Shown one piece after another: positions 1 through 4,567 of a DNA stretch of 4,567 nt. Source of the stretch: a virus. Its lineage: Duplodnaviria > Heunggongvirae > Uroviricota > Caudoviricetes. The first letter of the stretch is position 1, and each line of letters begins with the position of its first letter. The notes under the pieces were generated by a model, which did no database searches, was not told the DNA's origin, and saw only the letters and a list, made by a program, of their open reading frames with translations. The stretch lies in IMG/VR virus record IMGVR_UViG_2671180473_000005; one strand, 5' to 3'. Both the position numbers and the translations under genes were made by a program.

Positions 1-64
1 GTCACTCTCGTCTGGGGAATATCTCCCCGGCAGCCTTCAGGGAAAAATATCATCAGATGGCTGC

Positions 65-418
65 TTAAAAAAAGAACAAATGGTAGTGTCCGCTATTGCC
101 AGTACACCTCAATTGCTCTGCGGCTTCGCTCAGAGCTGGCGTATGTTCCCGGCCTACTGATTCACACAGGTAATCAACGAAACCGGACACCAGTTTTCGT
201 TCGCGAGGCGTGATCGCCCCACCGACCGGAGTCCAGTAATCGAAACCCAGTTGCAGGAGTTTGAAAAAACGCTTGTGGAATGCGTAGTTACACACACGCT
301 TAAAGTCTGCGTGTATCCACTCACCTATTTTGATTTGATGCAGAAAATCGCAACTCTCCGGCGTCGCCGGGAGAAGTAATCCGGAAGAGGTTTGTTTGAC
401 CAGTTGTATATGTGCCAT
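65..418 (-). CDS. hypothetical prophage protein, 117 aa from the ATG; probably truncated or frameshifted at its 3' end
   Basis: Minus-strand ORF. ATG at 416-418 is preceded by GGAG about 7 nt upstream; the track ORF 65..460 starts at a TTG overlapping the upstream stop. The protein ends ...GHYHLFFF then TAA at 65-67, immediately after a 7-nt homopolymer (plus A-run 67-73). A neighbouring frame stays open to the window edge. No family recognised. Confidence 0.5.
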   Translation of the reverse strand: MAHIQLVKQTSSGLLLPATPESCDFLHQIKIGEWIHADFKRVCNYAFHKRFFKLLQLGFDYWTPVGGAITPRERKLVSGFVDYLCESVGREHTPALSEAAEQLRCTGNSGHYHLFFF

Positions 419-993: not shown

Positions 994-1149
994 TTACTTC
1001 CTGGATTCGTAGTCTACGAAGACAGCGACCTCCGTCTGGCCGGTTCGGATTCGTACCTCACAGAGGTCTTTCCTCGTTACCAGTGCCGTCACTATGACGG
1101 TTAAACAGATGACGATCAGGGCGATTAACATCGCCTTTTGCTGCTTCAT
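994..1149 (-). CDS. hok: Hok family type I toxin (membrane-depolarising host-killing peptide), 51 aa
   Basis: ATG at 1147-1149, TAA at 994-996. Translation MKQQKAMLIALIVICLTVIVTALVTRKDLCEVRIRTGQTEVAVFVDYESRK has the Hok transmembrane helix and conserved LCE..R..G..EVA motif and closely matches HokD/HokC-type chromosomal Hok as recalled. An alternative frame is open from the gap edge to 1058, consistent with an overlapping mok-like frame. Confidence 0.9.
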   Translation of the reverse strand: MKQQKAMLIALIVICLTVIVTALVTRKDLCEVRIRTGQTEVAVFVDYESRK

Positions 1150-1159
1150 AGCCTGCTTC

Positions 1160-1389
1160 NNNNNNNNNNNNNNNNNNNNNNNNNNNNNNNNNNNNNNNNN
1201 NNNNNNNNNNNNNNNNNNNNNNNNNNNNNNNNNNNNNNNNNNNNNNNNNNNNNNNNNNNNNNNNNNNNNNNNNNNNNNNNNNNNNNNNNNNNNNNNNNNN
1301 NNNNNNNNNNNNNNNNNNNNNNNNNNNNNNNNNNNNNNNNNNNNNNNNNNNNNNNNNNNNNNNNNNNNNNNNNNNNNNNNNNNNNNNNN
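1160..1389. other. 230-nt run of N (assembly gap or masked sequence)
   Basis: Directly visible. 230 is not a multiple of 3, so any ORF drawn across it is artefactual. Confidence 1.
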
Positions 1390-2034
1390 GATAAGAGGGC
1401 GTCCCTGAGATTTGCGGTGTAGATTGGTATCGCGCAGAGAATACACACAGCCACAATATTCCTGCTGATAGAATTTTTCGCGCTTGCTGATTTCAATCAT
1501 ACGGGACGAGCCGCCCTGCTTGCGCCAGTTATAATCCCAGTACACCATGCCCGGATAATGCGCGACGGCTCGCCGCCCACAGTCGTTAACCTGCTGCATA
1601 TTTTTCCAGCGTGAAATGCCCAGTGAACTGCTGATCACACTGAAACCATTTTCAGCGGCGTACAGCGCTGTCCGCTCAAAACGCATGTCAAAACACATGG
1701 TGCAACGGATCCCTCGTTCGGGCTCCCATTCCATTCCTTTGGCTCGTTCAAACCAGTTGTCTGTGTCGTAATCAGCATCAATAAACGGCACGCCGTGTTG
1801 TTCAGCAAAGCGAATATTCTCATCCTTACGAATTAAATACTCTTTCTGAGGATGAATGTTCGGGTTGTAGAAAAAGATGGTGTAGTCGATTCCCGAGGCC
1901 TGAAGCGCCTCCATCACCTCACCGGAACATGGAGCACAGCAAGAGTGCAGTAGTAGTTTGTTTGCCCCGTTTGGGAGCTCCAATTTGGGCCGTTTGAAAT
2001 CAGCAACTGTCATAAATATGTTTATTGGGGTCAT
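1390..2034 (-). CDS. queH: QueH/DUF208 family epoxyqueuosine reductase-like protein; 3' end lost in the N gap
   Basis: 215 codons visible from ATG 2032-2034 (alternative ATG 2011-2013) to the gap edge. Carries the motifs recalled for the family: [37 protein letters not shown]. About 25 residues precede the LLLH motif, and neither ATG has a recognisable Shine-Dalgarno. Confidence 0.8.
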
Positions 2035-3032: not shown

Positions 3033-3779
3033 CTACTTAACAACCCTCGAATGGCTAACATTCGGACGCCAGCTCTCCCAGTTAAAATTCACCCAGCGCC
3101 CGCCGTTCATGACCATGCGATCCATCACCCGCTCGCCGAGCAATGTTTTCATCACCTCATAGTTCAGGTTTGTCAGCATCCCCACGCTGCGCATCGACGC
3201 TGTCCGGCGATCAACAATCTGGTGCAGCACCACCTGCTCGTTTTTCGTCTCGCGCTGAATGCCAATTTCATCAAGAACCAGCAGATCCACTTCGCACAGC
3301 TCCCGCAAAAATTTTTCGCCTGACTGCCCGTCGTCATAGCTGGCGTGCAGGGCGCTCATAACATCAGCCACGGTAACCACAATCACTGTCTGACCGTCTT
3401 TCAGCAGGCGATTCCCGATAGCTGCCGCTAAGTGATTCTTCCCGGTACCAGGTTTTCCGCTGAACGCAAAATTTGTACACCCGGTCATCAGTTCATCGGC
3501 GATGGATTTCGCCTGGCTTAACGCGTATCGCTGGCCGTCGTTCTGCACCTGGTAATTCGCAAACGAGCATTTACGGTGCAACGGCTGGATGCCTGAGCGA
3601 TTCAGAATTTTTTCCACCCGCAACTGGCGATTCAGGCGGTTGATCTCCTCGCTACGTTTCTGGCCTTCAGCAAGTTGCCACTCGCGCCACTCCGCTACCG
3701 TTCTGAATGGGGCGGTTACATGTGGCGGGGTCAGTCGGCGGATGCGTTCCAGAACGCCGCCTGTCGCAATATTTTTCAT
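3033..3779 (-). CDS. DnaC-family AAA+ helicase loader (phage replication protein, IstB-like ATPase), 248 aa
   Basis: Walker A FSGKPGTGKNHLAAAIG and Walker B DLLVLDEIG are present. ATG at 3777-3779 lies 6 nt downstream of the stop of the initiator C-terminal frame, as expected for a replication operon. Confidence 0.9.
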   Translation of the reverse strand: MKNIATGGVLERIRRLTPPHVTAPFRTVAEWREWQLAEGQKRSEEINRLNRQLRVEKILNRSGIQPLHRKCSFANYQVQNDGQRYALSQAKSIADELMTGCTNFAFSGKPGTGKNHLAAAIGNRLLKDGQTVIVVTVADVMSALHASYDDGQSGEKFLRELCEVDLLVLDEIGIQRETKNEQVVLHQIVDRRTASMRSVGMLTNLNYEVMKTLLGERVMDRMVMNGGRWVNFNWESWRPNVSHSRVVK

Positions 3780-4133
3780 GGTCCGTTACCCCCTGAAGCC
3801 TGGCGGGATCGCACTGTCCGGCAACGAGACGGTGTTAACCTGTCGGAGCAACGTCTCAGGCCGAACACCTTTCGGCGCGAACAGGCCCTGGTATTCATTG
3901 GCGATGCTGTGTCGAATCACCTGCTCAGGTGTAAAACCCTGCTGACGGAATTTTTCCAGTTCCCGTATCGCCCCGTTAGCGCCCTGCTCCGTTCGAATCG
4001 GTTTTCGCAATGCCTGTCTGAACCGGACCCACTCATGCCAGAGTGTTTCCGGCAACCAATCGGGCAGCTCAATAGCCTCCGGCTCGAATTTTTTAGACGC
4101 TCGTTTTTGGCGAGGGGGAGATCAGTATTTAGA

Positions 4134-4154
4134 TCTTCCTCTTCCTCTTCCTCT
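4134..4154. repeat. hexanucleotide tandem repeat (TCTTCC) x3.5
   Basis: tcttcc tcttcc tcttcc tct on the plus strand. On the minus strand it encodes EEEEEE in the linker frame (RGRGRG and RKRKRK in the other two). Confidence 0.9.
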
Positions 4155-4246
4155 GGTAACGCTTTTTGATCCGTTTGTGTAACGCTGGCAGCGTTACCTT
4201 TTCGTTTCAGTTCGCGTATTTTTGTTACTCGCTCGTTTGTAACCGC
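4155..4246. repeat. cluster of dyad-symmetric TGTAACGC/GCGTTACA repeats, candidate replication-origin iterons
   Basis: Perfect 19-bp palindrome GTAACGCTG-G-CAGCGTTAC at 4179-4197; further half-site copies at 4155-4162 (ggtaacgc), 4224-4228 (gttac) and 4238-4246 (tgtaaccgc); motif cgtttgt(g)taac recurs at 4172-4183 and 4234-4243. Confidence 0.4.
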
Positions 4247-4386
4247 CCGTTTTTTTTAGAGCTTTTTCCGTTATGACGTTCAAAGTTAGGTAGAGAAAGC
4301 CCTCCGTCATTTTCGACCAGCCATCCAACCTGAATTAACGCATCAGCAAAACCAGACATAAAAGTGATGCGATCTATTGCACTTTT

Positions 4387-4407
4387 TGTAACGCCGCGAG
4401 CGTTACA
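4387..4407. repeat. second palindromic copy of the TGTAACGC half-site
   Basis: tgtaacgc (4387-4394), 5-nt spacer cgcga, gcgttaca (4400-4407): perfect 8-bp arms, inside the initiator N-terminal coding region. Confidence 0.4.
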
Positions 4408-4462
4408 ATCTGCATTACCGTCTATCATTTGTTGATCCGCCCATGCCCAGAAGCGAATAACC

Positions 4463-4567
4463 TGAGGTAGCCTGAGTTTAACGGACACTCCTTCCTGAAA
4501 TAGAATGGCATCAGAAGGAGCTAATAATGAGCAGAAAAACCCAACGTTACTCTAAAGAGTTCAAAGC
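4463..4567 (+). mobile_element. left end of an IS3-family insertion sequence (IS600-like), partial
   Basis: Sequence begins TGAGGTAGCCTGAGTTTAACGGACAC at about 4463 (IS3-family ends typically start TGA). About 64 nt later a GAAGGAG Shine-Dalgarno and ATG start an OrfA-like gene. The exact boundary is not established. Confidence 0.5.
4527..4567 (+). CDS. IS3-family transposase OrfA, N-terminus only (runs off the window)
   Basis: ATG 4527-4529 with AGGAG 6 nt upstream; translation MSRKTQRYSKEFKA matches the N-terminus of IS600-type OrfA as recalled. Confidence 0.6.
   Translation, partial: MSRKTQRYSKEFK

Follow-up and report, generated by a model that had tools for sequence, protein, structure and literature searches.

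The window, that is, the whole stretch of 4,567 nucleotides analysed here, very probably represents 4.35 kb from the early (replication/nin) part of a decayed, Rac-like lambdoid prophage of Shigella sonnei, the species in which IS600 was first described, flanked at either end by IS600 copies that share one orientation, one of which has inserted inside a lambda-O-like replication initiator gene. This copy, designated copy A, would have arrived by ordinary IS3-family transposition into the initiator coding sequence, duplicating 3 bp (GGT/ACC). The insertion leaves the gene in two parts: a 35-codon 5' stub, still next to ydaT, cro, and the gene for a cI-like repressor, and a 3' remnant, still next to ydaV, the gene for a DnaC-like loader. 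The split would destroy the initiator protein, and the 1,264 bp of antisense IS sequence would part the early promoter region from the rest of the replication module, with a possible polar effect on the downstream genes. Two frameshifting indels in the remnant may have been picked up afterwards, or may already have been there. The features at this end of the window are as follows:

4463–4567, plus strand: left end of IS600 copy A, comprising the left inverted repeat, the leader, and the first 14 orfA codons (105/105 identical)
4460–4462, no strand: target-site duplication ACC (GGT on the gene strand), its second copy lying beyond the IS, outside the window
3786–4462, minus strand: 3' remnant, from codon 36, of the lambda-O-like replication initiator gene, a pseudogene (alignment to the uninterrupted locus L001)
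4225–4488, minus strand: chimeric 87-aa ORF starting at GTG 4488, with 8 2/3 IS600 codons followed by initiator codons 36 to about 105
4388–4406, no strand: 19-bp palindrome inside the initiator gene, second copy (motif scan)
4179–4197, no strand: perfect 19-bp palindrome GTAACGC-N5-GCGTTAC inside the initiator gene (motif scan)
3033–3779, minus strand: ydaV, intact, encoding a DnaC-like helicase loader of 248 aa (Pfam IstB_IS21/Bac_DnaA; PHROG 50; NCBIfam NF009043, 510 bits; RefSeq ydaV)

Identity of the element at the window end

Compared with complete E. coli genomes, the final 105 bases of the window (TGAGGTAGCCTGAGTTTAACGGACACTCC...ATGAGCAGAAAAACC) are identical at 105/105 positions (E = 4e-47) in 3,060 of 5,426, and the features at these matches are named "IS3-like element IS600 family transposase" in RefSeq; the name IS600 is taken here from these RefSeq/PGAP labels. 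The left inverted repeat has the terminus TGAGGTAGCC..., with its first base at 4463, and the direct reading from there is TGAGGTAGCCTGAGTTTAACGG.... The orfA ATG lies at 4527–4529, and its product begins MSRKTQRYSKEFKA, in a frame that is open past the window end. The segment corresponds to the first 105 nt of a complete IS600 of 1,264 bp, our reference copy from E. coli E2865 (locus L002, 2501–3764), which lies inside ninF with a CGC target duplication at both flanks. The sequence-only reading had proposed an IS3-family element in this segment from a TGA-initiated terminus and the start of an OrfA-like gene; the element is indeed of this family, and both positions were correct, an agreement far beyond chance.

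The complete copy A is found in the S. sonnei locus L003 (8763–10026), where it is 1,264 bp long and identical to the reference at 1261/1264 positions; apart from these 3 of 1,264 positions, there is no detectable difference between the two. Copy A ends TGAGGT...ACCTCA, and its two ends agree at 20 of the first 29 terminal positions. Its orfA encodes 100 aa (IS positions 65–367) and matches Pfam HTH_Tnp_1, and its orfB lies in the −1 frame, which is open from IS position 304 to 1221. An A7G slippery run at IS positions 316–323 falls within the orfA/orfB overlap; RefSeq carries the annotation "programmed frameshift" for the transposase, and on this annotation orfB is predicted to be made by −1 frameshifting at the run. 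The orfB product is a DDE transposase (Pfam rve, E = 8.7e-26; NCBIfam NF033516 "IS3 family transposase", 334 bits against a cutoff of 160). All these full-element features were read on the L003 and L002 copies, the window itself containing IS600 ends. In other words, the length (1.2–1.55 kb class), the TG...CA ends, the two overlapping ORFs, the rve domain, and the 3-bp duplication are those of the IS3 family, of which IS600 is described as a member with a 3-nt target sequence (PMC9397093). A promoter-like arrangement, TTAACG-17-TAGAAT, occurs at 4478–4506 of the window (L003 10011–9983) as a match to the consensus only.

Nothing was found in favour of the OrfA-like gene being instead a native, divergent gene of the phage, with no IS present; its DNA is 100% identical to IS600 across thousands of unrelated chromosomal and plasmid contexts, and the uninterrupted prophage exists without this sequence, which leaves that explanation no probability at all. 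The window also resembles a whole short-read contig, ending about 105–111 nt into a repeat on both sides, as it would if repeat k-mers had been misattached to the contig during assembly with no true IS adjacent. Such an artefact is practically without probability: identical junctions occur in megabase-scale assemblies, together with complete IS600 copies and the matching target duplication, and the junction-specific ORFs are present on 344–531 contigs.

The insertion point and what lies beyond it

When positions 3700–4567 were compared with E. coli genomes, 681 were found to have the prophage sequence uninterrupted, and all 681 of these alignments end at window position 4463. Among the complete E. 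coli genomes, none spans the IS600/initiator junction, and the best coverage ends at 4463. An exact-match scan for the 64-nt junction gave 0 matches in a genome-contig collection that we suspect holds one genome per species, with Shigella perhaps placed under E. coli. The best uninterrupted reference is E. coli FDAARGOS_944 (L001), in which the initiator gene, of 262 aa, occupies 3587–4375 on the minus strand between a YdaT-family gene and ydaV, with a Cro/CI-family gene and a divergent HTH repressor further upstream.

Base-by-base alignment to L001 places copy A after nt 107 of the initiator coding sequence, at codon 36 of 262, in the orientation opposite to that of the gene. The flanks in L003 read ...gggaaGGT-IS600-GGTtattcgc as against GGGAAGGTTATTCGC in the uninterrupted sequence, a clean 3-bp duplication. 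Both the other IS end and the second copy of the target duplication, for which the flanks beyond the window were inspected, are present in L003, and the 5' stub of the initiator on the far side, in this simple-insertion state, would read ...CCTTCCCTAATGCGGCATC.

The sequence-only reading had placed the element against the 5' end of the initiator gene, with the OrfA-like gene starting about 40 nt from the apparent initiator start and about nine IS-derived codons opening the ORF at 4225–4488. The distance and the codon count stand (38 nt between GTG 4488 and the ATG; 8 2/3 codons). The gene boundary is refuted: the insertion lies inside the coding sequence, and since the uninterrupted orthologue has another 107 nt of coding sequence upstream, GTG 4488 belongs to IS sequence and the native start lies outside the window. 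The IS600-derived part of the ORF runs from 4488 to 4463, a frameshift in a T-run ends it, and by this alignment the ORF is an artefactual frame whose GTG is not a native start.

As to the identity of the interrupted gene, the intact 262-aa orthologue matches PHROG 2509 "replication initiation protein" over its full length (E = 1.2e-89) and PHROG 678 "O-like" (E = 7e-26), and phage records with about 93% identical DNA carry the annotation "DNA replication protein O". Neither the two initiator fragments nor the intact orthologue matches any Pfam or NCBIfam family. L001 shows the gene order cro, ydaT, initiator, ydaV (DnaC-like), and L003 has it too, interrupted by the IS, with ydaV immediately after the initiator remnant. 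The earlier view of this gene as a replication-initiator homologue thus agrees with the PHROG match and the phage records, and replication initiator is a reasonable label for it by homology and synteny. The order cI-like, cro, ydaT, initiator, ydaV is that of Rac-like prophages, and recalls the Rac ydaU-ydaV and lambda O modules. On the other hand, the initiator here differs from these modules in being split by IS600 and frameshifted twice, and it is not of the DUF1376 type and has no Pfam match (DUF1376 is found in a 285-aa gene at the ydaU position of another locus, L008).

The remnant carries two lesions of its own when aligned to L001, both of them frameshifting: T8 in place of T6 at 4250–4257 (+2), and a 10-bp deletion in which one AGGGGGATTT unit was lost between 4112 and 4113. 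Judged from this alignment, the initiator is dead for further reasons beside IS600.

The far side of copy A was compared in 8 long loci returned with the identical junction. In 6 of the 8 long S. sonnei assemblies, the complete 1,264-bp IS600 is followed by the 5' 107 nt of the initiator gene, with its first 35 codons, and then by ydaT, cro, and the cI-like gene in intact order, so that the upstream genes are displaced by 1,267 bp with the GGT/ACC target duplication. L003 is laid out in this way to the left of copy A, with DUF1391 beyond the cI-like gene. In L004 (GCA_965230885.1), a deletion of 2,514 bp at 8762/8763, directly beside the right inverted repeat of copy A, extends from the end of the IS into an IS3-family element nearby, taking with it the 5' stub of the initiator together with ydaT, cro, the cI-like gene, DUF1391, and a partial IS600. 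Because the upstream genes and the target duplication lie directly beyond the IS in 6 of the 8 assemblies, the simple insertion is marked as the ancestral state and the L004 deletion as secondary. On either side of its N-run, the window is identical to L003 and to L004, and it ends 105 nt into the IS, so an L003-like and an L004-like far side fit the source strain equally.

These observations also bear on the alternative that the IS lies immediately 5' of an initiator gene that is otherwise whole, with the cro/cII-type genes and the promoter gone. The GTG-initiated ORF beginning 38 nt from orfA would agree with it, as would the L004 deletion, which removed the stub and the genes upstream; the 107 nt of coding sequence beyond the junction, the position of that GTG within the IS, and the presence of the upstream genes directly past the IS, which has a target duplication, in 6 of the 8 assemblies make it unlikely. 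The expectation in the sequence-only reading that the cro/cII-like genes and promoter were displaced or lost therefore holds for displacement in these six assemblies, and for loss in one strain (L004) only.

In L008 (GCA_001248565.1, 8738–8762), copy A is joined on its far side to the 3' end of a second ydaV, with N at the junction. This ydaV belongs to a fuller Rac-like prophage with recT, exonuclease VIII, kilR, sieB, and the DUF1376 gene at the ydaU position. The join may be either an IS600-mediated recombination of two prophages or a scaffolding join; as evidence of recombination it was set aside, the N lying exactly at the junction.

The lambda origin lies inside the O gene, and the 19-bp palindromes in and next to the initiator gene are reminiscent of it. 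The window holds two of them against 0.01 expected, and a third lies 14–32 nt upstream of the initiator ATG, beyond the IS (L001 4389–4407; L003 8624–8642). The three are spaced about 200 bp apart, with about 0 expected by chance, and are candidate initiator-binding or origin sites; copy A parts the upstream palindrome from the other two.

The second IS600 copy and the state of the prophage

At the other end of the window and in the region between the two IS600 copies, the following features are seen:

1–111, plus strand: right end of IS600 copy B, comprising the last 22 orfB codons (stop at 66–68) and the right inverted repeat (111/111 identical)
65–418, minus strand: DUF1367 gene truncated at about codon 102 of 199 by copy B (Pfam DUF1367 profile positions 1–102 of 198)
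994–1149, minus strand: hokD-like gene, intact, beside sok
1390–2013, minus strand: gene for QueH (epoxyqueuosine reductase; Pfam QueH, E = 1.6e-65)

Positions 1–111 are the tail of a complete IS600 (L003 14407–15670), whose right inverted repeat ends ...GTACACCTCA at 111, and which has the same orientation as copy A. The frame of the truncated DUF1367 gene continues into the IS sequence to a stop at 65–67, giving a fusion product of 117 aa. With IS600 ends on both sides, the window has the look of a complete short-read contig that broke at IS600 repeats. Copy B is flanked by AAT and GTT, that is, it has no target duplication, and in full assemblies an integrase fragment of 160 aa, adjacent to modCBA, lies on its far side; this junction is therefore a rearrangement and not a simple insertion.

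Two complete IS600 copies in direct orientation, each identical to the reference at 1261/1264 positions, flank the 4.35 kb with ydaV, DUF977, queH, hok/sok, and the rem-like gene, and this is the arrangement of a composite transposon that moved as a unit. On the contrary, the outer flanks are GGT to the left of A and GTT to the right of B, with no duplication, copy A owns a private target duplication, the segment without its IS aligns collinearly, at 99.6%, to an uninterrupted prophage, and the same chromosomal context recurs across assemblies. A composite transposon is thus extremely improbable, and was rejected on the flank sequences.

With the IS removed in silico, L003 and L001 are 99.6% identical across 5.9 kb. 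All four indels between them fall in ydaT and the initiator gene, that in ydaT being a 1-bp deletion (L003 8195), and none falls in ydaV, DUF977, queH, hok, or the rem-like gene. The N-run of the window (1160–1389) has 230 N in place of 259 nt in the otherwise identical L003 (13100–13358), where the corresponding sequence covers the 3' end of queH and the hok leader/sok region; Rfam sok (RF01794) matches at L003 13199–13374 with 117 bits. The QueH gene is a prophage cargo gene between the replication genes and hok/sok.

Within 6 kb there are a third (partial) IS600, another IS3-family element, an IS110-family element, and an IS that interrupts the lysis cassette. The locus has at least 5 IS copies or fragments in 15 kb. 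In L003 600–16200, the early region (DUF1391 through the truncated DUF1367) has the opposite orientation to both the integrase fragment and the lysis genes; a Q antiterminator gene was not seen in the interval. The prophage remnant is scrambled. Given the split initiator and its indels, the ydaT deletion, the truncated integrase and DUF1367 genes, and the other IS elements, it should be unable to replicate or excise as a phage, and the judgement of the sequence-only reading that the prophage is defective is well supported. That reading had also argued that the replication module is transcriptionally orphaned, which is plausible for this putative effect and largely moot, the remnant carrying two frameshifting indels of its own. 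A scan of copy A and its flanks for promoter and terminator consensus sequences gave counts at the chance level (2 against 3.2 expected, and 5 against 4.0 expected) and is therefore uninformative on polarity.

The four indels and the IS600 insertion all lie in ydaT and the initiator gene, and ydaV, queH, hok/sok, and their neighbours are intact. It may be supposed from this pattern that the damage is non-random, selection having grounded the prophage by killing its replication and toxin functions and keeping useful cargo, which the two IS600 copies in direct orientation might render, through recombination, excisable or mobilisable; we consider this very unlikely.

IS-driven decay in Shigella sonnei

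Five IS have expanded in all Shigella, and IS600 is among them (Hawkey et al. 2020, PMC7373316). In S. sonnei, the chromosome has a median of 286 IS insertions, and these hundreds of insertions per chromosome create pseudogenes (PMC7373316). The word "prophage" has 0 occurrences in the text of that study of IS decay in Shigella, and the present locus adds one more instance of the process. It is routine Shigella decay driven by IS, with nothing novel in it, and public S. sonnei assemblies that have it already number in the hundreds.

The importance of the locus lies mainly in correct annotation, as textbook IS-driven prophage decay combined with short-read contigs that break at IS copies. The chimeric 87-aa product is found in 481 index blocks, in 397 of which the longest contig is only 2–5 kb, and its source naming is that of a Shigella sonnei protein present on 492 contigs. 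The 41-aa ORF of the stub and the 117-aa DUF1367 fusion, present on 344 and 531 contigs, respectively, are likewise named as S. sonnei proteins. These three "bacteriophage proteins" of S. sonnei are IS600-junction artefacts of two broken genes, and they warn against placing the start of a gene by an ORF that extends into the end of an IS.
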